Notes under the pieces: model-generated
Told to the model about the DNA's origin: nothing
The model's input: the letters and a program-made list of their open reading frames with translations, nothing else
Database searches by the model: none
From: a virus
Lineage: Duplodnaviria > Heunggongvirae > Uroviricota > Caudoviricetes
IMG/VR virus record: IMGVR_UViG_2690315831_000002
Strand: one strand, 5' to 3'
Length of the DNA: 37,164 nucleotides
Translations under genes and position numbers: made by a program
Part shown: positions 5,382 through 30,633 of the stretch, in pieces
How the letters are laid out: each line of letters begins with the position of its first letter
Position numbering within the stretch: the stretch's first letter is position 1

Positions 5382-6989
5382 TTAATTTATCTTTTCAACA
5401 TTTCCATGAATCAACAAGTCGTAGGCAAGAAATAGTTTCCTATACTGGGTTTTTAAATTGTCAACGTCGCATGCCTTGAATTGAACAAACGCTTCTTTTT
5501 TAACATAATCTTCAATCTCCTCTTTGGGGATATTTTTTATGTTCTTAATGACTATAGACAATTCTTTGTACTTTTTGAACGTTGCATCCTTTATATCTTT
5601 GATGTTGGTGTAAATTTTATTTGCATTGATTTTATCTAAGGTGATTTTATTGAGCAAGTCGTCTAGTTTTCCGTGGCGTTCAATGCGTTGATTTAGTTTT
5701 AACACATATTTAGCTGGCAAACTTAACTCTTTCAAATTACATGAGGTTATAGTTTTTGAAAATGGAAGTTGTAATGAGTTTACTGAACCTAATATGAAAT
5801 CTATGGCTAATTTATTAGATATTTCATTTTTATTAAATAAGTAGTCTTCAAGATAATTTATTTCTTTAACTTGTGTGAATACATACTTTTTATCGCCTAG
5901 AGCAACAACTAAATTTTTTCCTTGTTTAACACTTTCTTCAAGTCTGTCTAAGTCAGAAGGTGAAACCAATAGAGTATCTAAGTGCCCTTTTTCACCCTCA
6001 TTAATGATAAGTGTTTTAATGGCTCTTTGATACCTTAAAACATCATAAGGTGAGAGCCCTTCATCAACAGCACTGATCTCATCATAGATCTGTTTATAGT
6101 TATCTGTTTTAACAGATGTATATGTAATTTGTAGCTGTTGATCGGTAATCTGTTTTGGTACTACTTCCTGTTCATTCTCTTTATATTCAATCAAAATTAT
6201 TCTTTCAGCTGATTTTCGACCATCTTCTCTAGGTAGTTGTGAGGAAAAATCAGAAAGAAGTTTCTTTACATTCCTGTCAGTTAAAGAATATCCAAGAAAA
6301 ACTATTGGATTTTTAATCATGTTAGATAGTATCTTGGCACTAATGAGTATAGATTTGTTGTCATATTTTTCGTAATCATCTTTATTTATGATTATTGAGT
6401 GTGGATCCTTTATATCACCATGTATTTTGTATAACTCACTCCAGCCAATAGTATCTTCGAAAAAACCATTATTTCCAATATAGAGTTTTGGAATTACATT
6501 TTGCTCTTGAAGTAAATTTTCTATGAAAGCATCATAATTTGTAGTGATGATTATCTTGGCCTTTTTTATTAATGTTTTAAATGATGCTAATTCATCAAGA
6601 TTTACATCCTTTCTGATTGTGTTATTAGAAAATCTTTGGCATATGGCGTATTTAAATGGTGAAATATCTTCACTAAAAACCCTCTTGGCATCTAGTCCAT
6701 TTAATTTTAATTTGCCAGTCCTAAACAATAGATTGTAATCATTTTCAATTTTACTTGCTGCCTCTGTATAAATCTTATGATCGATATCATTATCACTGTT
6801 ATTTTTATGTGATTCTTTTATTGTTAAAAGATAACTATAGAAATCATTTGTGGGATTTGTTATTTTCCAATACTCGTTTAATAGCTCTTCCCACGTTGGG
6901 TAGTTCTCTAAATATCTTTTTGAAATGCCTGAGCCAATAAAGACTATTGGGTAATTTTTGAATTCAAAATTTTTTTTTGACATATCCAT
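5382..6989 (-). CDS. SIR2-family (SIR2_2-like) protein with an uncharacterised ~260-aa C-terminal domain; candidate NAD+-dependent defence effector
   Basis: 535 aa in a low-GC island. The ordered SIR2_2 motifs are VFIGSGIS (aa 16-23), TTNYD (149-153), KIHGD (188-192) and FLGYSLTD (231-238). It lies between OL and cI on the cI strand, the lambda rexAB slot. Confidence 0.75.
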   Translation of the reverse strand: MDMSKKNFEFKNYPIVFIGSGISKRYLENYPTWEELLNEYWKITNPTNDFYSYLLTIKESHKNNSDNDIDHKIYTEAASKIENDYNLLFRTGKLKLNGLDAKRVFSEDISPFKYAICQRFSNNTIRKDVNLDELASFKTLIKKAKIIITTNYDAFIENLLQEQNVIPKLYIGNNGFFEDTIGWSELYKIHGDIKDPHSIIINKDDYEKYDNKSILISAKILSNMIKNPIVFLGYSLTDRNVKKLLSDFSSQLPREDGRKSAERIILIEYKENEQEVVPKQITDQQLQITYTSVKTDNYKQIYDEISAVDEGLSPYDVLRYQRAIKTLIINEGEKGHLDTLLVSPSDLDRLEESVKQGKNLVVALGDKKYVFTQVKEINYLEDYLFNKNEISNKLAIDFILGSVNSLQLPFSKTITSCNLKELSLPAKYVLKLNQRIERHGKLDDLLNKITLDKINANKIYTNIKDIKDATFKKYKELSIVIKNIKNIPKEEIEDYVKKEAFVQFKACDVDNLKTQYRKLFLAYDLLIHGNVEKIN

Positions 6990-8150: not shown

Positions 8151-8696
8151 ATGACTATGCAACCACTTACATACCAACAGACTAGCGGATTTAGCCCGAC
8201 TGCGGTGATAAATCGTTCTCAAATAAAACAGGTGCCAGGCCACGAAAAAATCCGTGATGCCGTTCGCGCGTGGTCGGCTGCAGATAATCAGGATGTTGTT
8301 GCCGCACTCATTGTGAATGAGTATCGGGAGCAGGGCGGCGGCACCATCGATTTCCCTGATGATGTCAGCCGTGCACGCCAGAAGCTGTTCCGCTTCCTCG
8401 ATAACAAATTCGATTCTGAAAAATACCGAAATAACGTGCGTGAACTGACCCCGGCAATTCTGGCGGTACTACCGCTGGAATATCGCGGCCACCTGGTTGA
8501 GCAGGATAGCTTCATGGCTCGGCTGGCTGAAATGGAAAAGGAACTCTGTGAGGCAAAGCAGGCGGTCATTCTCAACGCACCACGCCACCAGAAACTGAAG
8601 GAAATGAGTGAAGGTATTGTGTCGATGTTTCGTGTGGACCCGGATCTGGCTGGTCCATTAATGGCGATGGTTACCACCATGCTGGGGGCAATATGA
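8151..8696 (+). CDS. CII-position protein, possibly YdaT-like
   Basis: 181 aa between cro and O. It does not resemble lambda CII. The YdaT-like call rests on position and my general impression, not on a defined motif. Confidence 0.4.
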   Translation: MTMQPLTYQQTSGFSPTAVINRSQIKQVPGHEKIRDAVRAWSAADNQDVVAALIVNEYREQGGGTIDFPDDVSRARQKLFRFLDNKFDSEKYRNNVRELTPAILAVLPLEYRGHLVEQDSFMARLAEMEKELCEAKQAVILNAPRHQKLKEMSEGIVSMFRVDPDLAGPLMAMVTTMLGAI

Positions 8697-8782
8697 CAGG
8701 TTCAGAAATGGCGAAAGCCGGTCTGCGGGAACAGAGCCGACTTTCAGGTGCAAATCGTAACGCACTCATTGCGGAAGGAATT

Positions 8783-9712
8783 ATGGCAAACACTGCTGAG
8801 ATATTCAATTTTCCAGTGCCGGATGAGGCACAAAAGGAGCCGCGCGTGGCAGATCTCGATGATGGTTATACGCGCATTGCAAATGAGTTGCTGGAAGCTG
8901 TGATGCTGGCCGGATTAACACAGCACCAGCTTCTGGTCTTCCTGGCTGTCATGCGCAAAACATATGGCTTTAATAAAAAACTGGATTGGGTGAGCAACGA
9001 GCAACTGTCCGAATTGACCGGGATATTGCCGCACAAGTGTTCTGCTGCAAAAAGTGTTCTGGTAAAGCGTGGGATTTTGATTCAGAGCGGGCGGAATATC
9101 GGTATTAATAATGTGGTCAGTGAATGGGCAACATTACCCGAATCAGGTAAGAAAAATAAAGTTTACCTGAAAGAGGTAAATTTACCTGAATCAGGTAAGA
9201 AAAGTTTACCCAAATCAGGTAAAGGCGTTTACCCGAATCAGGTAAACACAAAAGACAAACTAACAAAAGACAATATAAAACCTTTTTCGTCCGAGAATTC
9301 TGGCGAATCCTCTGACCAACCAGAAAACGATCTTCCTGTGGTGAAACCAGATGCTGCAATTCAGAGCGGCAGCAAATGGGGGACAGCAGAAGACCTGACC
9401 GCCGCAGAGTGGATGTTTGACATGGTGAAGACCATCGCGCCCTCAGCCAGAAAACCGAATTTTGCAGGGTGGGCTAACGATATCCGCCTGATGCGTGAAC
9501 GTGATGGACGTAACCACCGCGACATGTGCGTGCTGTTCCGCTGGGCATGCCAGGACAACTTCTGGTCCGGTAACGTGCTGAGTCCGGCCAAACTCCGCGA
9601 CAAGTGGACCCAGCTCGAAATCAACCGAAACAAGCAACAGGCTGGCGTGACAGCCGGCAAACCAAAACTCGACCTGACGAACACTGACTGGATTTACGGG
9701 GTGGATTTATGA
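8783..9712 (+). CDS. O: Replication initiator O (non-lambda N-terminal iteron-binding half, lambda-identical C-terminal half)
   Basis: ATG 8783 is preceded by GGAAGGA. The C-terminus (SSENSGESSDQPENDL.VVKPDAAIQSGSKWGTAEDL...NTDWIYGVDL) matches lambda O. The ori iterons lie inside the gene. Confidence 0.9.
   Translation: MANTAEIFNFPVPDEAQKEPRVADLDDGYTRIANELLEAVMLAGLTQHQLLVFLAVMRKTYGFNKKLDWVSNEQLSELTGILPHKCSAAKSVLVKRGILIQSGRNIGINNVVSEWATLPESGKKNKVYLKEVNLPESGKKSLPKSGKGVYPNQVNTKDKLTKDNIKPFSSENSGESSDQPENDLPVVKPDAAIQSGSKWGTAEDLTAAEWMFDMVKTIAPSARKPNFAGWANDIRLMRERDGRNHRDMCVLFRWACQDNFWSGNVLSPAKLRDKWTQLEINRNKQQAGVTAGKPKLDLTNTDWIYGVDL
9134..9245. repeat. Replication-origin iterons (5 copies) inside O
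   Basis: 17-bp units TTACC(C/T)RAANNAGGTAA start at 9134, 9163, 9182, 9206 and 9229. Each is an inverted repeat TTACC-N7-GGTAA. An A-rich tract follows at 9246-9290. Confidence 0.85.
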
Positions 9713-10410
9713 AAAACATCGCCGCACAGATGGTTAACTTTGACCGTGAGCAGATGCGCCGGATCGCCAACAATATGCCGGAACAGTACGACGAAAAGCC
9801 GCAGGTACAGCAGGTAGCGCAGATCATCAATGGTGTGTTCAGCCAGTTACTGGCAACTTTCCCTGCGAGCCTGGCTAACCGGGATCAGAACGAACTGAAC
9901 GAAATCCGCCGCCAGTGGGTTCTGGCTTTCCGGGAAAACGGGATCACCACAATGGAACAGGTTAACGCAGGAATGCGCGTAGCCCGTCGGCAGAATCGAC
10001 CATTCCTGCCATCACCCGGGCAGTTTGTTGCCTGGTGCCGGGAAGAAACATCCGTTACCGCTGGGCTGCCAAACGCCAGCGAGCTGGTTGATATGGTTTA
10101 CGAGTATTGCCGGAAGCGTGGCCTGTATCCGGACGCAGAGTCTTATCCATGGAAATCAAACGCGCACTACTGGTTGGTTACCAACCTGTACCAGAACATG
10201 CGGGCCAATGCGCTGACTGACGCGGAATTACGGCGTAAAGCTGCCGATGAGCTGACCTGTATGACCGCGCGAATTAACCGTGGTGAGGCGATACCTGAAC
10301 CAGTAAAACAACTTCCTGTCATGGGCGGTAGACCTCTAAATCGTGCACAGGCTCTGGCGAAGATCGCAGAAATCAAAGCTAAGTTCGGACTGAAAGGAGC
10401 AAGTGTATGA
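9709..10410 (+). CDS. P: Replication protein P (DnaB loader)
   Basis: 233 aa, near-identical to lambda P (MKNIAAQMVNFDREQMRRIANNMPEQYDEKPQVQQVAQIINGVFSQLLATFPAS...). Confidence 0.95.
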   Translation: MKNIAAQMVNFDREQMRRIANNMPEQYDEKPQVQQVAQIINGVFSQLLATFPASLANRDQNELNEIRRQWVLAFRENGITTMEQVNAGMRVARRQNRPFLPSPGQFVAWCREETSVTAGLPNASELVDMVYEYCRKRGLYPDAESYPWKSNAHYWLVTNLYQNMRANALTDAELRRKAADELTCMTARINRGEAIPEPVKQLPVMGGRPLNRAQALAKIAEIKAKFGLKGASV

Positions 10411-10442
10411 CGGGCAAAGAGGCAATTATTCATTATGAGTAA
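10407..10442 (+). pseudogene. ren: ren remnant (first 10 codons only)
   Basis: ATGACGGGCAAAGAGGCAATTATTCATTAT encodes MTGKEAIIHY, the N-terminus of lambda Ren. It overlaps the P stop as in lambda and ends in a stop two codons later, where low-GC DNA begins. Confidence 0.7.
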
Positions 10443-10508
10443 CTTTCTAAATTTTTTGAGCCAGATTAGTGGTCTTGGATTCAGTTTACGTCTCAGATAC
10501 TGAGAAGA

Positions 10509-10523
10509 ATCACAATTTGTGAT
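10509..10523. promoter_or_regulatory. 15-bp palindrome upstream of the PRTase-like gene (candidate operator)
   Basis: ATCACAA-T-TTGTGAT has perfect 7-bp arms and lies ~90 bp upstream of ATG 10614. No binding protein is assigned. Confidence 0.25.
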
Positions 10524-10613
10524 ACATGTTAACATTATGACTTTTAAGGCTTTAACTGAATTATTTTAAGAGTATTCTGACCCTTTCGTATCAATGCATG
10601 AACAGGAATCCAC

Positions 10614-11633
10614 ATGTGTTACAGTAATGTTACAGATCGTGATCTTATGGGGCAAATTGCTACTAAACTAAATGACTATCGAAACCCTCCTCAAGGTGGC
10701 ATGAGCATTGATCATGTTAATCGATGGATTAATCAATTTGAGTTAACTGATAGGCGATTTGTCTTAGAGGAAACGGACCGATTAATGGGGATTGGATACT
10801 TTTCTGAGAACGACTATCGCAGGGTTATTAGTAGTATCGCCACTGATGAGCAAAATGAAAGTTTCTTTCAAACTGCAGCGTTTCTCGATATTCAGAACCA
10901 AGGTACCAGTCAATCTGAGTTTTTGGATTTACTTCGAGATGATTGTGTAGAAGAATTCAACGTTGTGACCAGACTTTCACAACGTCAAAGAGTTAGTTCA
11001 TTCCGTGAATTTATTTACGTTGACGATGTTTTATTCTCCGGAGCTAAGGCAATCAATGATTTAATTTGGTTTATTGAGCACTTTAAACTCCAAAATATTA
11101 CAATATTGGTGTACTTTTTAGGTGGGCACACATATTCAACATGGAAGATAAAAGACCAACTTGAACGAAGATTTGCGGGCAGAAATATTTCAGTTGGCGT
11201 TGGTGGAGGTGAGTTTGTATTTGTTGAAAATAAACTCCGAAATAGTTCGAATTCGGAGGTTTTATGGCCAAAAGCGCAAAGTGTATCAATACCTGAATGG
11301 GCTGACGGTCAAATACATTATTTAGGAACATATCGAAACGGTTACGTCGCGAATAAAATTTTTCCTGATGAGCAGAGACGTGATCGTTTTGAAACTATTC
11401 TGACAAAAGTTGGGTTTGATATCCTTGGTCATAGTCAAAATCCCTCTGCTGTCATAAAGCCCTTAGGCTTTTCAACTTTCAATGGTGTTGGGTTTGGCGG
11501 AACTATCTTTACTTTCAGAAACTGCCCAAATAATACCCCTCTCGCGTACTGGTGGGGAACTTATCTTCGAACAGGAAATAGAGCTCTGGATTGCTGGTAT
11601 CCACTTATGAAGCGTAATGTGTATAATCGGTGA
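10614..11633 (+). CDS. Type I phosphoribosyltransferase-like (PRTase-fold) protein, function unknown
   Basis: 339 aa, low GC. The call rests on one motif: REFIYVDDVLFSGAKAINDL (aa 131-150), which resembles the PRPP-binding loop (hydrophobic run-DD-x-x-x-(S/T)G). The first ~130 and last ~190 aa are unassigned. Confidence 0.45.
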   Translation: MCYSNVTDRDLMGQIATKLNDYRNPPQGGMSIDHVNRWINQFELTDRRFVLEETDRLMGIGYFSENDYRRVISSIATDEQNESFFQTAAFLDIQNQGTSQSEFLDLLRDDCVEEFNVVTRLSQRQRVSSFREFIYVDDVLFSGAKAINDLIWFIEHFKLQNITILVYFLGGHTYSTWKIKDQLERRFAGRNISVGVGGGEFVFVENKLRNSSNSEVLWPKAQSVSIPEWADGQIHYLGTYRNGYVANKIFPDEQRRDRFETILTKVGFDILGHSQNPSAVIKPLGFSTFNGVGFGGTIFTFRNCPNNTPLAYWWGTYLRTGNRALDCWYPLMKRNVYNR

Positions 11634-12247
11634 TCATGAGCTATAGACTATACCTGTTTCACAACACAGTTTCTTTCAGGAAAACCACCGAGAAATGGGG
11701 TGGTCTTTCCAACATGGCCAAAGGATATCCGCTCTTCGTTAATGGTATACCCATTCAATCGAGTGAAATTCTTTACCAAGCATGCCGATATCCAGACTAT
11801 CCAGATATCCAAAGGGTTATTATTACCCAAGCCAACCCTTACGAAGCTAAACAAACCGCCAGAACCTTCGAGGCCAAAACCCGTACTGGTTGGGAAAAAA
11901 ATCGAGTTTCGGTAATGAAATGGTGTGTCTGCGTTAAGCTTTGCCAGAACTGGGAATCGTTCTTCGCGCTATTGGATAGCACAGGAGATCATGACATTGT
12001 TGAGCACTCAGAGAAGGACCAATTTTGGGGGGCTAGTAAGGACTCCGAAGGTAACTTTTATGGCATGAACGTGTTAGGTCGTATCCTTATGGATGCGAGA
12101 GATATTGCAAGAAAGAAGGGGCCTGCAGGGTTTGCTACGATACCGCCGCTACCCTTGGATAGGTTTCTTCTGCTCGGGGAGCAAATACGTGATGTCACTT
12201 TCTCTCCACCACCGATGGATTCAGGGCAAAGCTTATCGCTTTTTTAA
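11630..12247 (+). CDS. NADAR (DUF1768, YbiA-like) domain protein
   Basis: It aligns by eye to E. coli YbiA along the whole domain: LSNMA..P..VNG....SSEILYQACRY versus FSNFA..PI.VDG.WPTSEHYFQAQKF, and IVEHSEKDQFWGA...G.NVLGRILMDAR versus LVEHTENDAYWGD...GKNRLGYLLMELR. The start is GTG 11630 (overlapping the upstream stop) or ATG 11636. Confidence 0.8.
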   Translation: MIMSYRLYLFHNTVSFRKTTEKWGGLSNMAKGYPLFVNGIPIQSSEILYQACRYPDYPDIQRVIITQANPYEAKQTARTFEAKTRTGWEKNRVSVMKWCVCVKLCQNWESFFALLDSTGDHDIVEHSEKDQFWGASKDSEGNFYGMNVLGRILMDARDIARKKGPAGFATIPPLPLDRFLLLGEQIRDVTFSPPPMDSGQSLSLF

Positions 12248-12288: not shown

Positions 12289-12309
12289 CCCGCTTTGGCG
12301 GATTTTTTA
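12289..12309 (+). terminator. Weak terminator-like hairpin after the NADAR gene
   Basis: CCGC-tttg-GCGG is followed by ATTTTTT. The stem is only 4 bp. Confidence 0.25.
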
Positions 12310-12531
12310 TAAATTATGCAACTTATTGACTTGATACCGATATTTCAGACTTTAACATAGCAGCCAAAATCTAGGACGAAGGCGACAAAGTAAACGTTGA
12401 ATTGGCTGCCATCGGCGTAGCGTTCAAAGAGTGGATGAATATGTCGGTTATAGCGGAAGCGGTGATGCGTGAGCAGACATCGCTCTGCCCAAGGCATCCG
12501 CCCCTCGACATCTTAAGCAGGAAGGTGAAAA

Positions 12532-13014
12532 ATGATAAGTGCAGAAGGACTGCAGCGGTTACTTAATTTATCGGAGCCTCCATCTGATGAACTGATTGAT
12601 GTTTATCTTCAATTCAGCATGATTTTTCCTAGGGTCGAACAAAGTTTTTTTGGTGGCTTTGCTAAGGGGGAAGACAGTTTAAATTATGCTCGAACGTTAC
12701 TTGACGCCGGGATAAAGGTGCCCAACGAACTTTTTCACGATTTTAAGCAGAGATACATTTTGAACGGGGATGCGCAGGAAAGACTTGACGCCCTCTGTTT
12801 CGGTCGAGAGAGAGATAAGCGGGGAATAGTTAATGGGCTTCAAAATGACGCAGCAACAGATCTAAACACCATGTCTACAGTATTAAAGATAGTTATAAGG
12901 ATAAGAAATAACCTTTTCCACGGAAATAAAGACGCTTATCTTTTTGTTGATTCTCAAGAGCAAGCGCAACTATTGAGATGGTGCGTGAGATTTCTCCAAG
13001 GATTATTAAATTAA
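12532..13014 (+). CDS. Small HEPN-domain protein (Rx4H motif)
   Basis: 160 aa, predicted helical. R125-NNLF-H130 lies within [12 protein letters not shown], near the C-terminus as in HEPN RNases. AGGAAGGTG precedes the ATG. Confidence 0.55.
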
Positions 13015-13203: not shown

Positions 13204-13659
13204 GTGAACCTACCACAAGATGGCATCAAACTGCATCGTGGTAACTTCACCGCTATCGGTCAGCAGATCCAGCCTTATCTGGAGGACGGCAAATGCTTTC
13301 GCATGGTGCTTAAACCGTGGCGCGAGAGACGCAGTCTTTCCCAGAATGCACTTAGCCACATGTGGTACAGCGAAATCAGTGAATACCTCATAAGCAGGGG
13401 GAAATCGTTCGCTACTGCAGCATGGGTAAAAGATGCTCTCAAACACACATACCTCGGTTATGAAACCAAAGACCTGGTTGATGTCGTAACCGGTGAAATC
13501 ACCACTATTCAGTCGTTACGCCATACCTCCGATCTTGATACCGGAGAGATGTATGTCTTCCTGTGTAAGGTTGAAGCCTGGGCGATGAATATTGGCTGCC
13601 ACCTGACTATTCCGCCGAGCTGCGAGTTCGAGCTGCTGCGCGACAAGCAGGAGGCGTAA
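13204..13659 (+). CDS. ybcN: YbcN-family nin-region protein (DLP12 type)
   Basis: 151 aa with a GTG start. [59 protein letters not shown] is recognised as near-identical to E. coli YbcN. Confidence 0.85.
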
Positions 13660-15515: not shown

Positions 15516-16319
15516 CTATTTCTTTTTGGGAAGTGGATACTTTAAGCTAACATTTTGAGTTTCTATATCTCGTGGCCCTCGAGTTTTATCATAAAAATAC
15601 CAGATATTAAATTTTCTCTCAGTGTGCCATGTATCATATTGCAAGTGATCCCAGCCTAAATATGAAGCAACATAGTTTGATACTCTTATTTTGGCTTCAG
15701 ATGAAGCTTTTCCTTGATATGCGCACATAACCGCACCTAAGAAAAAATCGGCTAGCTGAATGTTTTCAGATGCTTTAGAGTCTTTTGTCACTACACTGCT
15801 GATTATCCCTTTACGACCAAATTTTCTATTCAATATGTTATTGGCAATAACATTTAGTTCTTCATCAGCCTTTTTATAACGAGATGCGATAGGATCAACT
15901 TCAATCCTGAAGTAACTGTCTCTTTCAGGGTGTGCAGAAATTACAGAGCTAATTTTTGTGGTAATGAGATTTGTGAAGTGCTTTCTCCTTGCCAGGTCAT
16001 AATCTCCATTATGAAATGCCTTATTTACTATTGATTTTTCAACCACGATACAATGAAAAGCTAGCCAAGGAACTCTAAAGAATAAGTCGATCAGCTCAAG
16101 ATAAAATTCAGAGTATCTTTTTGAATGGGCTTTTTGCCATTTTATTTCTTCAAAAAAAACATGTTTTCTGCGTAGTTCTCTGATTAGTTGACAGAAATCC
16201 CCACGGCGTTGGTACTTCATCCACAGACTGCCAAAGCCGTAGAAACGTTGTCCATCAATGCCAGATTCATCGCAAGCAATATGCCAAATTAACTTACCAA
16301 TGTTATCTTTTTCTGTCAT
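15516..16319 (-). CDS. DUF3800-like protein
   Basis: 267 aa in a low-GC island. It has the N-terminal CDESG motif (IACDESGIDG) and the C-terminal QLADFFLGAV motif typical of DUF3800. It is antisense to the late operon. Confidence 0.6.
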   Translation of the reverse strand: MTEKDNIGKLIWHIACDESGIDGQRFYGFGSLWMKYQRRGDFCQLIRELRRKHVFFEEIKWQKAHSKRYSEFYLELIDLFFRVPWLAFHCIVVEKSIVNKAFHNGDYDLARRKHFTNLITTKISSVISAHPERDSYFRIEVDPIASRYKKADEELNVIANNILNRKFGRKGIISSVVTKDSKASENIQLADFFLGAVMCAYQGKASSEAKIRVSNYVASYLGWDHLQYDTWHTERKFNIWYFYDKTRGPRDIETQNVSLKYPLPKKK

Positions 16320-29544: not shown

Positions 29545-30633
29545 CTATTCGCTATAAGTTAATGTTGGTTTTGAAAGTCTTTTGGATATTGTTTTTCCGA
29601 TATTAATGAATGGAGTTTCAATATATTTATAAATAAAGAATGATAAGAACAAGCTAAGAGCAATAATGAATGAAAACTTAGAGAACCCAGGTTTTTCATA
29701 AAGCGGAATGAAATCCTTAAAATTAATTAAAAATAGCATTACTATCGCATGGGATAAATACAGAGAGTAAGAGATATCACCTAGCTTACTGAGTATTTTA
29801 TTTTCCCTTAATCCGAAGTTAACTTCATAAAGTAAAACTCCCGTAATTATGGAGGCTGCCCACAATCCGAAGTTTAAAGGGCCATGACCAAATCTGAATT
29901 GATAAAAATATGAGCAAACACCAAATGAAACCAAAAGGAATGATATCGCCTTTGCGTTTTTTATATATTTAAATTTTCTGTGTATTATATACAGAAACAT
30001 CCCATAAACGAATTCTAACAGCATGGGTGATGACATTAAGTTTAGAAAGCCAATATGCCAATGACCTGTATCACCAATCGTAAACTTACTTGATAGAGAA
30101 AGGCTGTTGGAAAATTTCAACTGTATGAGAAGTAGCGGGACTATCAATGCAATAACTGATATTAATAATCTGTTTTTATGACTCAGCGATATTGCAAGCA
30201 TAAAAATGAAATAAAAATAGACTTCAAAGGTTAATGTCCATGCTGGATAAAGCACGTTGTATCCGAAGAATGGCGCTTCTGAATAATAGTCCAGGTGAAG
30301 CAGAAACAATGAACGCAATAATTCACTTTCGGTGAAGACTGGGTTCAATAAAAAGAATAAGATTGTGCAAATGAAAAATACAGGGTAAATCCTGAAAAAA
30401 CGCCTGGTCATAAAGTTAATAGGGGAATTTGTTTCTTTTTTTTGACTCGATAACATTATTATAAATCCACTTATAATAAAAAACAGATCAACCCCAAAAC
30501 CACCACTAATAAACAATAAATCACCTAGATCTTTTTGTGCGTAAACTTCATTTAGGTATTGTTTATTGTGATATGCAACAACGAGTAATGCTGCTACACC
30601 TCGCAAATAGTGAATTGATTTTACCTTCTTCAT
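29545..30633 (-). CDS. Integral-membrane acyltransferase (Acyl_transf_3 family; OafA/Oac-like, probable O-antigen/surface glycan acetylase)
   Basis: 362 aa with ~10 hydrophobic segments. The N-terminal signature IHYLRGVAALLVVAYH and the DLFFIISGF motif are present. It is very low in GC. Confidence 0.8.
   Translation of the reverse strand: MKKVKSIHYLRGVAALLVVAYHNKQYLNEVYAQKDLGDLLFISGGFGVDLFFIISGFIIMLSSQKKETNSPINFMTRRFFRIYPVFFICTILFFLLNPVFTESELLRSLFLLHLDYYSEAPFFGYNVLYPAWTLTFEVYFYFIFMLAISLSHKNRLLISVIALIVPLLLIQLKFSNSLSLSSKFTIGDTGHWHIGFLNLMSSPMLLEFVYGMFLYIIHRKFKYIKNAKAISFLLVSFGVCSYFYQFRFGHGPLNFGLWAASIITGVLLYEVNFGLRENKILSKLGDISYSLYLSHAIVMLFLINFKDFIPLYEKPGFSKFSFIIALSLFLSFFIYKYIETPFINIGKTISKRLSKPTLTYSE

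Follow-up and report, generated by a model that had tools for sequence, protein, structure and literature searches.

A PRTase-NADAR gene pair in the P-to-nin slot of a lambdoid prophage: a divergent allele of the anti-phage system DS-32 and its possible chemistry

The stretch of DNA analysed here (the window) comprises 37,164 nucleotides of a tailed virus (IMG/VR record IMGVR_UViG_2690315831_000002) and is essentially the same as IMG/VR contig IMGVR_UViG_2579778871_000006 (99.99% identity). Within it lie two adjoining genes, the first (gene A) encoding a phosphoribosyltransferase (PRTase)-like protein and the second (gene B) a NADAR protein. Because lambda-type O and P genes are found upstream and NinB downstream, the pair sits in the P-to-nin slot, which in the gene order of lambda is occupied by ren and ninA. 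An earlier, sequence-only reading had described a tightly coupled, low-GC pair in place of lambda ren, and both points hold. The G+C content is 37-38% over 10501-11500 (gene A), compared with ~50% in the flanks and the upstream P gene, while that of gene B (43-48%) is less extreme. The stop codon of gene A (TGA, 11631-11633) is overlapped by a GTG at 11630, and the ATG at 11636 begins 2 nt past the stop. The segment 10420-12530 recurs with 100% identity in Escherichia coli A35, in a lambdoid prophage integrated at icd.

The sequence-only reading had also taken the pair for an undescribed system, and in this it was mistaken. The pair is already known and validated, with curated NCBI models, and the claim of a discovery falls. 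It is almost certainly a two-gene anti-phage cassette of the DS-32 type, a moron that an icd-integrated lambdoid prophage carries in its P-to-nin slot and that would protect the lysogen from other phages. Both proteins pass NCBIfam equivalog models: the product of gene A scores 304.4 bits against NF053875 (DS32_1_antiphage; cut-off 250), the match spanning residues 12-334 and positions 2-322 of the 322 in the model, and that of gene B scores 260.1 bits against NF053876 (DS32_2_antiphage; cut-off 240), with the model covered completely (1-181 of 181). Furthermore, the identical locus in E. coli A35 already carries anti-phage protein names in RefSeq. DS-32 (lab code NADR), which consists of a PRTase and a NADAR, comes from the DefensePredictor study of DeWeirdt, Mahoney and Laub (bioRxiv 10.1101/2025.01.08.631726; Science 2026, PMC13092281), in which an E. 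coli isolate supplied the cloned genes and plaque assays in E. coli validated their protection (PMC13092281). In that screen, the -log efficiency of plating was 3.7 for Bas26, a T5-like phage of the Markadamsvirinae, 1.6 for RB69, 0.9 for SECphi18, and 0.6 for T5, the values being flagged as replicated (PMC13092281). Its authors pointed to a resemblance between DS-32B and the NADAR antitoxin of DarTG, found DS-32A unlike DarT in both structure and sequence, and proposed that toxin-antitoxin partners had been swapped (PMC13092281).

Compared with the prototype, the window pair keeps both families, their order, and their common strand, in what reads as one transcription unit, with a similarly tight or overlapping junction and in the same E. 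coli prophage slot; the prototype allele in strain 504239 lies between P and the nin genes of another lambdoid prophage. Gene B begins at the ATG at 11636 (MSYRLY...) in RefSeq, as in the DS-32B prototype. However, the product of gene A is only 51% identical to the tested DS-32A (WP_000097610.1; 338 aa, gapless), and that of gene B is 82% identical to the tested DS-32B (WP_032260665.1). In addition, gene A is 4 residues shorter than its counterpart, and consequently the two genes abut, with a 2-nt gap, rather than overlapping by 11 nt as in the prototype. The window copy has diverged from the prototype and occupies a prophage hotspot at which defence cargo is exchanged. In the prophage of strain 504239, P and the PRTase gene are separated by an MT-A70 family methyltransferase pseudogene that contains an internal stop (L175 5437-6021).

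The first reading had noticed a motif in gene A resembling the loop that binds phosphoribosyl pyrophosphate (PRPP), which is indeed present, but it had left the regions on either side unassigned. These flanks are part of a defined family domain, since PF24390 (PRTase-CE) of Pfam covers residues 35-334 (E 2.2e-39), nearly the whole protein. The PADLOC model PRTase_III-A matches residues 34-334 (E 2.2e-8), and in Pfam and PADLOC the family matches are to PRTase-CE and retron effector models only, with no similarity to the PRTases of nicotinamide adenine dinucleotide (NAD) salvage. An AlphaFold2 model (predicted local distance difference test score, pLDDT, 90; predicted template modelling score 0.88) contains, by structure comparison, a type I PRTase core, that is, a five-stranded parallel beta core with helices on both sides, as the proposed PRTase fold had implied. 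For the helical region at the N terminus and the last 130 residues, neither the PDB nor fold searches offered a solved counterpart, and a sequence comparison with the PDB gave no meaningful match. In the model, FIYVDDVLFSGAKA forms a strand (132-140) followed by a helix (144-156), which is the type I PRTase arrangement, and its residues F-I-Y-V-D137-D138-V-L-F-S-G-A-K supply a hydrophobic strand, two acidic residues, and a small-residue phosphate-binding turn. Among 96 family members, Y135, D137, D138, F141, and G143 are at least 97% conserved, as is a loop of Q94, G97, S99, and Q100 that is possibly the pyrophosphate (PPi) loop. The best conserved part of the protein is its C-terminal region, where the block R302-N-C-P-N-N-x-P-L...W313...W328-x-P-L...R334 is at least 97% conserved (R302, N303, C304, P305, N306, N307, P309, L310, and W313 in the same 96 sequences); the PNNxP residues P305-N306-N307-x-P309 are invariant, and a cluster of glycines (G291, G293, G295) precedes them. 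A PRPP-dependent phosphoribosyl transfer is the putative activity of gene A.

The assignment of gene B to the NADAR family, made in the first reading, is borne out by PF08719 (E 1.9e-23; 83.9 bits, cut-off 35.1) and by a match to the structure of E. coli YbiA, 2b3w (E 4.3e-12). The residues E44, E123, D128, and W131 align with E48, E124, D129, and W132 of YbiA. Of these, D128 is 99% conserved in the 80 NADARs that have a PRTase partner, and E44, E123, and W131 are invariant there, as are G132, G143-x-N-x-L-G, and R155; an N-glycosidic hydrolase activity is predicted on this basis. The residue in the last strand separates the NADAR groups, with Glu in the YbiA subfamily, Asp in the BC4488/DarT1-linked group, and His in phage gp30.3 (PMC11125620); by its Glu, gene B classes as a YbiA-type NADAR. 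Characterised NADARs cleave ADP-ribosyl-guanine and serve as the antitoxins of DarT1 and of YarT (PMC11125620), and ADP-ribosyl-cytidine is cleaved as well (PMC12945103). The nearest NCBIfam function model is TIGR02464, a riboflavin-intermediate N-glycosidase, which gene B approaches with 69.7 bits but does not pass (cut-off 73.7). From the 2015 work of Frelin, the riboflavin-intermediate substrates of the YbiA family are said to be 5-phosphoribosylamino compounds (5-phosphoribosylamino-pyrimidines), which contain the type of bond that a PRTase makes.

Table 1. Coordinates of the cassette, its motifs and neighbours, and of the related orphan phage genes (positions are those of the window unless another locus is named).
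Feature	Position	Strand	Remarks
Gene A (PRTase-like, DS-32A family)	10614..11633	+	ATG start; 339 aa; RefSeq WP_032217952.1, 'phosphoribosyltransferase-like anti-phage protein'
Gene B (YbiA-type NADAR, DS-32B family)	11636..12247	+	203 aa; RefSeq WP_032217954.1, 'NADAR family anti-phage protein'
PRPP-loop-like motif of gene A, FIYVDDVLFSGAKA	residues 133-146, nt 11010..11051	+	acidic dyad D137-D138, then S142-G143
Family signature of gene A, R-N-C-P-N-N-x-P-L-x-x-W-W-G	residues 302-315, nt 11517..11558	+	matches 'PNNxP' of type III retrons
NADAR catalytic strand of gene B, I-V-E-H-S-E-K-D-Q-F-W-G	residues 121-132, nt 11996..12031	+	E123 is the last-strand Glu
Second catalytic Glu of gene B, E44	nt 11765-11767	+
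Candidate promoter block, AAGAGTATTCTGA	10568..10580	+	-10-like TATTCT at 10573-10578, 36 nt upstream of the gene A start codon
Shine-Dalgarno sequence, AGGA	10604-10607	+	upstream of gene A
Lambda-type O	8693-9712		upstream of the pair; PF04492
Lambda-type P	9709-10410		upstream of the pair; PF06992
NinB	13204-13659		downstream of the pair
Orphan NADAR, Dolichospermum phage Dfl-JY45	L088 2983-3621
Orphan NADAR, uncultured phage LR745208.1	L089 2980-3615		LR745208.1 is also L165
Orphan NADAR, 177-kb IMG/VR contig	L170 4830-5591

Upstream of gene A, divergent alleles, the 51%-identical prototype among them, retain the AAGAGTATTCTGA block but not the remaining spacer. This selective conservation suggests that the block is a candidate promoter of the cassette's own, although a consensus promoter scan of 10411-10613 called no promoter, the AAGAGTATTCTGA block included. 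A terminator scan called none 3' of gene B; the element formed by CCGCTTTGGCGG and ATTTTTTA at 12290-12309 has, by eye, a stem of just 4 bp. No Rfam family was detected in the whole window, and repeats around the module were at chance level only. A perfect 7-1-7 palindrome (ATCACAA-T-TTGTGAT) lies at 10509-10523, ~90 nt upstream of the PRTase start. It has one mismatch in the ~95%-identical allele and is absent or degenerate in more distant ones, and it was rejected as a shared operator because it is not conserved upstream of the other alleles.

Within E. coli, the pair was found in 63 of 5,426 complete genomes and was chromosomal in all of them. The three loci inspected are all lambdoid prophages, and the alleles fall into groups that are identical to the window copy, ~95% identical, or ~76% identical over the 3' part. 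In two genomes of enterotoxigenic E. coli (ETEC), IS5 interrupts the PRTase gene and leaves the NADAR gene intact. Beyond E. coli, a profile of 40 homologues recovered 1,210 representative clusters at E <= 1e-3 (575 of them at <= 1e-30), and a scan of one genome per species gave 281 confirmed relatives. The best 80 of these 281, from the Proteobacteria, Acidobacteriota, Chloroflexota, Planctomycetota, Patescibacteria, Spirochaetia, and other groups, were inspected. In 79 of the 80 loci, the PRTase gene is followed immediately by a same-strand NADAR gene, and the contig of the 80th stops 96 nt after the PRTase gene. The PRTase gene precedes the NADAR gene at every assessable locus (79/79), and the junction is overlapping or abutting nearly everywhere; such a recurrence of gene order and tight junction in distant genomes is not a matter of chance. 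Likewise, all 39 IMG/VR contigs with PRTase-CE also carry NADAR, and no intact PRTase gene without a NADAR was seen among the inspected loci. The pair is ancient and obligate. One contig (L150) has the identical PRTase allele beside a NADAR gene that is frameshifted at ~5259 (window 11895-11901), where an A7 run is 1 nt shorter; a second difference in homopolymer length lies a little way upstream. This combination of intact PRTase and broken NADAR (L099/L150) was set aside as evidence, the loss in the A7 run being probably a sequencing error.

In other phyla, the pair is often placed inside type I restriction-modification (R-M) operons, and in many distant genomes it lies between hsdM and hsdR. 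When the flanking genes at 79 loci were clustered, 29 loci had a gene resembling HsdM upstream, 18 had one resembling HsdR downstream, and 7 had one resembling GmrSD; Pfam confirmed one representative of each cluster. In some R-M operons, the NADAR is itself fused in frame to HsdS (Methylase_S) within an uninterrupted open reading frame (ORF) (L119 5855-8170, L120 2981-5176, and L126 5717-8203), and in L163 (4902-9023) it is fused to a DUF1156 DNA methylase in place of HsdS. In addition, a 540-aa protein, P0140, is a natural single-chain fusion of PRTase-CE and NADAR. Other members have gained LRR, Sel1, FGE-sulfatase, DnaJ-like, HRDC, or BRCT modules, which are attached to the PRTase and not to the NADAR, and in all four of the fusion contexts checked (BRCT, LRR, FGE-sulfatase, and HRDC) NADAR is the next gene. 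The BRCT-PRTase-CE protein (P0049; L083 1943-5323) was rejected as a designed fusion. A split NAD-dependent DNA ligase (N-terminal part plus HHH fragment) lies directly upstream of it, and for this reason the cassette was likely inserted into the 3' end of ligA, capturing the BRCT domain.

This distribution bears on the possibility that the pair is simply a housekeeping nucleotide-salvage operon that happens to reside in a prophage. PRTases and YbiA-type glycosidases do each have metabolic family members. However, a pair restricted to so few E. coli genomes, with atypical G+C content, in a moron slot with allele swapping, and scattered sporadically across phyla inside R-M operons does not behave like housekeeping genes, and a homologue has an experimentally shown defence phenotype. 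The housekeeping reading, whose likelihood is negligible, is effectively already ruled out by the distribution and the published phenotype. The earlier suggestion that the genes are cargo of genetic conflict is thus upheld by their rarity in E. coli, by the prophage location of the inspected loci, and by the R-M context elsewhere.

A second suggestion of the sequence-only reading was that the pair serves the phage rather than the host, stripping away the ADP-ribosyl lesions made by host DarT-like systems and rebuilding nucleotide or NAD pools from PRPP. The pair is carried by a prophage here, phage NADARs such as AdfN neutralise DarTG1 (PMC11257639), and phages rebuild NAD+ by PRPP-related enzymes (the NARP1 papers). 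Against this, the tested homologue protects an E. coli host that is free of phage and therefore acts as defence. Furthermore, PRTase-CE is absent from 50,697 sequenced phage records (megablast, and tblastn with gene A), the majority of relatives lie in chromosomes next to HsdM, HsdR, or GmrSD, and gene A is unlike the NAD-salvage PRTases. A counter-defence role for the pair is thus very improbable.

What phages do carry is the NADAR alone. Scored with a hidden Markov model built from the partnered NADARs, on which YbiA reaches 84 bits, orphan members of the DS-32B clade are found in the 485-kb uncultured phage LR745208.1 (330 bits), the 209-kb Dolichospermum phage Dfl-JY45 (259 bits), and a 177-kb IMG/VR contig (234 bits). 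No PRTase-CE was found in the flanks of these three genes. A marginal tblastn match to the RNCPNN motif near the NADAR gene of the 485-kb phage was rejected, the best hit of an unfiltered profile search having an E of 1.4; since that search found no PRTase-CE, the gene is a true orphan. By analogy with AdfN and DarTG1, the orphan phage NADARs are candidate anti-DS-32 counter-defence genes.

Family membership, fold, the conservation of motifs and catalytic residues, the obligate pairing, and defence by a homologue are established, and they allow a mechanism to be proposed. In this tentative model, the most probable of those considered though short of an even chance, the two enzymes would act in opposite directions on one bond type, with the PRTase making an N-phosphoribosyl adduct from PRPP and the NADAR removing it. 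Gene A, with its type I PRTase core, intact PRPP-binding acidic dyad, and family-specific C-terminal module, would be the effector. It would use PRPP to place 5-phosphoribose, via an N-glycosidic bond, on a nitrogen atom of a base in a nucleotide or nucleic acid, most likely on an exocyclic amine, and formation of the adduct would both consume PRPP and block replication. Gene B would cleave the adduct and so keep uninfected cells safe, until infection shifts the balance toward the PRTase, so that infection is aborted or phage DNA is poisoned directly. In this scheme, the substrate, the trigger, and which enzyme counteracts the other are predictions from sequence and from analogy. The idea of a defence module in which a NADAR undoes a (phospho)ribosyl adduct goes back to the sequence-only reading; it is kept as the best mechanistic guess, although the novelty then attached to the pair is not.

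Several observations are consistent with an effector role for the PRTase. These include its fold and the conservation, at 97% or above, of the acidic dyad, the Q94/G97/S99/Q100 loop, and PNNxP. Since sensor-type modules have gathered on the PRTase, it is further suggested to be the regulated effector subunit. Moreover, the homologous PRTase of type III-A3 retrons is a toxic effector that lowers PRPP by ~50% once triggered (PMC12746101), and the PRTase of ShosT is a toxin that an acidic-dyad mutation renders non-toxic (PMC11961720). For the NADAR, an antidote role is favored by the precedents of DarT1-NADAR and YarT-YbiA, by the invariant catalytic residues of YbiA type, by a toxin-first gene order like that of DarT1-NADAR at all 79 loci, and by the pattern of losses, in which IS5 strikes the PRTase while NADAR stays intact and no PRTase gene is seen intact by itself. 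The orphan phage NADARs provide a parallel to AdfN, the NADAR of T-even phages that neutralises DarTG1 (PMC11257639).

It should be noted that a number of points weigh against this scheme. The single-chain fusion P0140 and the stronger conservation of NADAR (higher than that of the PRTase at 79 of 79 loci; mean identity to the window proteins 48% versus 32%) would suit cooperating enzymes at least as well, and the orphan phage NADARs could have another purpose. The relatives inspected are the best 80 of 281, and the defence phenotype is known for the prototype allele only, from whose PRTase that of the window differs at about half of its positions (51% identity). To our knowledge, no acceptor substrate is known for any defence PRTase, whether ShosT, retron type III, Ophion OpnC, or DS-32A. 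The text and tables of the DefensePredictor study report no DS-32 mutants, single-gene constructs, toxicity data, or mechanistic test. Finally, the Retron-Eco11 PRTase is not toxic alone, though it is processed to a fragment (PMC12746101), and ShosT bound PRPP but none of the purines that were tried (PMC11961720).

The main rival to an antidote function is a cooperative futile cycle. In this case, the PRTase would form an N-phosphoribosyl adduct and PPi, and the NADAR would cleave the adduct to ribose-5-phosphate, regenerating the acceptor. The net result would be catalytic hydrolysis of PRPP, which would starve phage nucleotide synthesis, so that NADAR would be needed for defence rather than for self-protection. 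Such a cycle would fit the depletion of PRPP by the activated Retron-Eco11 homologue (PMC12746101), the pairing in ShosT of a PRTase with a second, product-removing activity, a pyrophosphatase (PMC11961720), the existence of the P0140 fusion, the strict co-occurrence of a better conserved NADAR, and the invariance of every NADAR catalytic residue. However, if NADAR aided defence, large phages would have no use for orphan NADARs of this clade as counter-defence, and the characterised NADARs of two-gene conflict systems, those of DarT1-NADAR and YarT-YbiA, are all antidotes (PMC11125620). In addition, constitutive cycling would require a separate off-switch, and none is visible in the two-gene cassette. 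On balance, a futile cycle is considered unlikely, though it deserves to be kept in mind.

The roles might also be reversed, with NADAR as the effector and the PRTase-like protein as a non-catalytic sensor or regulator. Here the PRTase fold would bind a nucleotide, PRPP, or (p)ppGpp as a receptor, like PyrR and PurR, and once infection is sensed it would free or switch on NADAR, which would then act on an N-glycosidic substrate of phage or host. The sensor-type repeats fused to the PRTase subunit (LRR, Sel1, FGE-sulfatase), the better conservation of NADAR, and the NADAR-HsdS fusions of some R-M operons would all be compatible with this arrangement. Yet the acidic dyad and catalytic-looking loops of the PRTase are at least 97% conserved, its homologues in retrons and ShosT are catalytic effectors whose active-site mutants lose function (PMC12746101, PMC11961720), and no toxicity is known for YbiA-type NADARs, small enzymes that act in repair or as antidotes (PMC11125620). 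These findings make a purely regulatory PRTase distinctly improbable. The probability left over from all these readings falls to some mechanism of another kind.

If the antagonistic scheme of PRTase effector and NADAR antidote is correct, it can be extended to a more specific hypothesis. DS-32A would then be the first PRPP-dependent base phosphoribosyltransferase to act as an immune effector, writing a new, reversible N-(5-phosphoribosyl) mark or lesion on guanine, cytosine, or adenine at an exocyclic amine, whether the base belongs to DNA, to RNA, or to the nucleotide pool. Such a mark would be a phosphoribose counterpart of the ADP-ribosylation by DarT. The NADAR would be the eraser, and the orphan phage NADARs would be dedicated anti-DS-32 factors. 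Where the cassette lies in a type I R-M operon, sometimes with NADAR fused to HsdS, it would constitute a back-up layer tied to the R-M complex. This extended version is speculative and, as a whole, rather doubtful.

The window prophage contains other genes that resemble cargo. Between the N region and the repressor, where rexAB would lie, window 5382-6989 (-) encodes a 535-aa SIR2_2 protein in DNA of very low GC (28-36%). Over its full length it matches the PADLOC candidate defence family PDC-S25 (779 bits), and it has weak matches to the SIR2 models of ThsA; the gene is probably another defence moron of this prophage. The sister prophage of E. coli SCU-485, whose DS-32 pair is ~95% identical, has no SIR2 gene in its rex slot but instead a HipA-family kinase (WP_000389051.1) and a DUF3037 protein (L002 2795-4521), and the kinase is listed in the DefensePredictor tables as HIPA (DS-6). 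From this difference, it follows that one backbone swaps defence cargo at several slots. Just 3' of the pair, window 12532-13014 (+) encodes a 160-aa ORF that matches phrog_27260 over its full length (E 1e-91) and is not annotated in the RefSeq entry of A35. It is predicted to be all-helical and contains RIRNNLFHG, an R-x4-H motif that recalls HEPN. Pfam and PADLOC gave no match, and a single-sequence AlphaFold2 model (pLDDT 40) was unusable. Because it is absent from the sister prophage in SCU-485, the ORF is not part of DS-32. Its start is overlapped by a truncated 'DNA polymerase III subunit theta' pseudogene fragment (window 12390-12566, +), as annotated by RefSeq on the identical A35 sequence. 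Between Q and the lysis genes, window 15516-16319 (-) encodes a low-GC, 267-aa DUF3800 protein with a match to the PADLOC candidate family PDC-M04A. A connection of this gene, 3.3 kb downstream, to the PRTase by way of retrons was rejected, as DUF3800 goes with type VII rather than type III retrons (PMC7736814). Lastly, a 362-aa acyltransferase (Acyl_transf_3) encoded in a low-GC patch of the late region (window 29545-30633, -) is probably another moron and possibly modifies surface polysaccharide.

With the identity of the pair settled, its remaining value lies in the mechanism. Of the defence PRTases described so far, that of DS-32 is the one whose obligate partner hints at its chemistry, because that partner is an intact N-glycosidase whose relatives cleave bonds between a ribosyl group and an exocyclic amine. 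To what was known, the present analysis adds the pairing across phyla, the natural fusion, the PNNxP motif shared with retron effectors, the embedding in R-M operons together with the NADAR-HsdS fusions, and the orphan phage NADARs. These comparative facts give specific, testable leads on the mechanism of DS-32.

Besides the DS-32 prototype, three known systems come close to the pair. ShosTA ('DprA-PRTase'; PMC11961720, PMC12961424) is likewise a two-gene defence system, with a PRPP-binding PRTase toxin that upsets nucleotide metabolism and requires its acidic dyad. However, ShosT consists of an N-terminal pyrophosphatase and an APRT-like PRTase, and its antitoxin is a DprA-like DNA-binding protein rather than a glycosidase. 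PADLOC returned no ShosT match for gene A (E up to 1), and none of the top structural matches listed was recognisable as ShosT.

Type III-A retrons, such as Retron-Eco11 (PMC12746101; classification, PMC7736814), share with gene A a homologous PRTase-like domain, the PRPP loop, and the PNNxP motif, which has been reported for the retron PRTases as Gx14PNNxP (PMC12746101). The Retron-Eco11 effector is triggered by the helicases UvsW of T4 and D10 of T5, after which PRPP is about halved and the infection is aborted (PMC12746101); DS-32 restricts the same groups of phages, T-even and T5, whose helicases trigger Eco11. In contrast to the retrons, the pair has a NADAR partner instead of a reverse transcriptase (RT) and its multicopy single-stranded DNA (msDNA), and its neighbors are O, P, and nin genes. 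No RT-like cluster was found in the flanks of the 79 loci, and no Rfam family corresponding to an msr-msd non-coding RNA in the window. The winged-helix lobe is also missing, both as a fusion and as a downstream gene, as gene A ends at residue 339 and is followed by NADAR.

The arrangement of the cassette resembles that of DarT1-NADAR (DarTG1) and YarT-YbiA (PMC11125620; PMC11257639). In each case, a gene for a transferase is followed by one for a NADAR glycohydrolase; the latter enzyme removes a ribosyl group that is attached to a base by an N-glycosidic bond, as is proposed for DS-32; the system is one of phage defence; and phages carry orphan antidote NADARs. YarT, in particular, has a partner of the YbiA type (Glu) like the window NADAR, whereas the DarT1-linked NADARs have Asp in the last strand. 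The first gene, however, is not a DarT-family toxin, as gene A matches PRTase-CE alone in Pfam and has a PRTase fold. Its donor would be PRPP rather than the NAD+ of an ADP-ribosyltransferase, and the adduct removed by NADAR would be phosphoribose rather than ADP-ribose.

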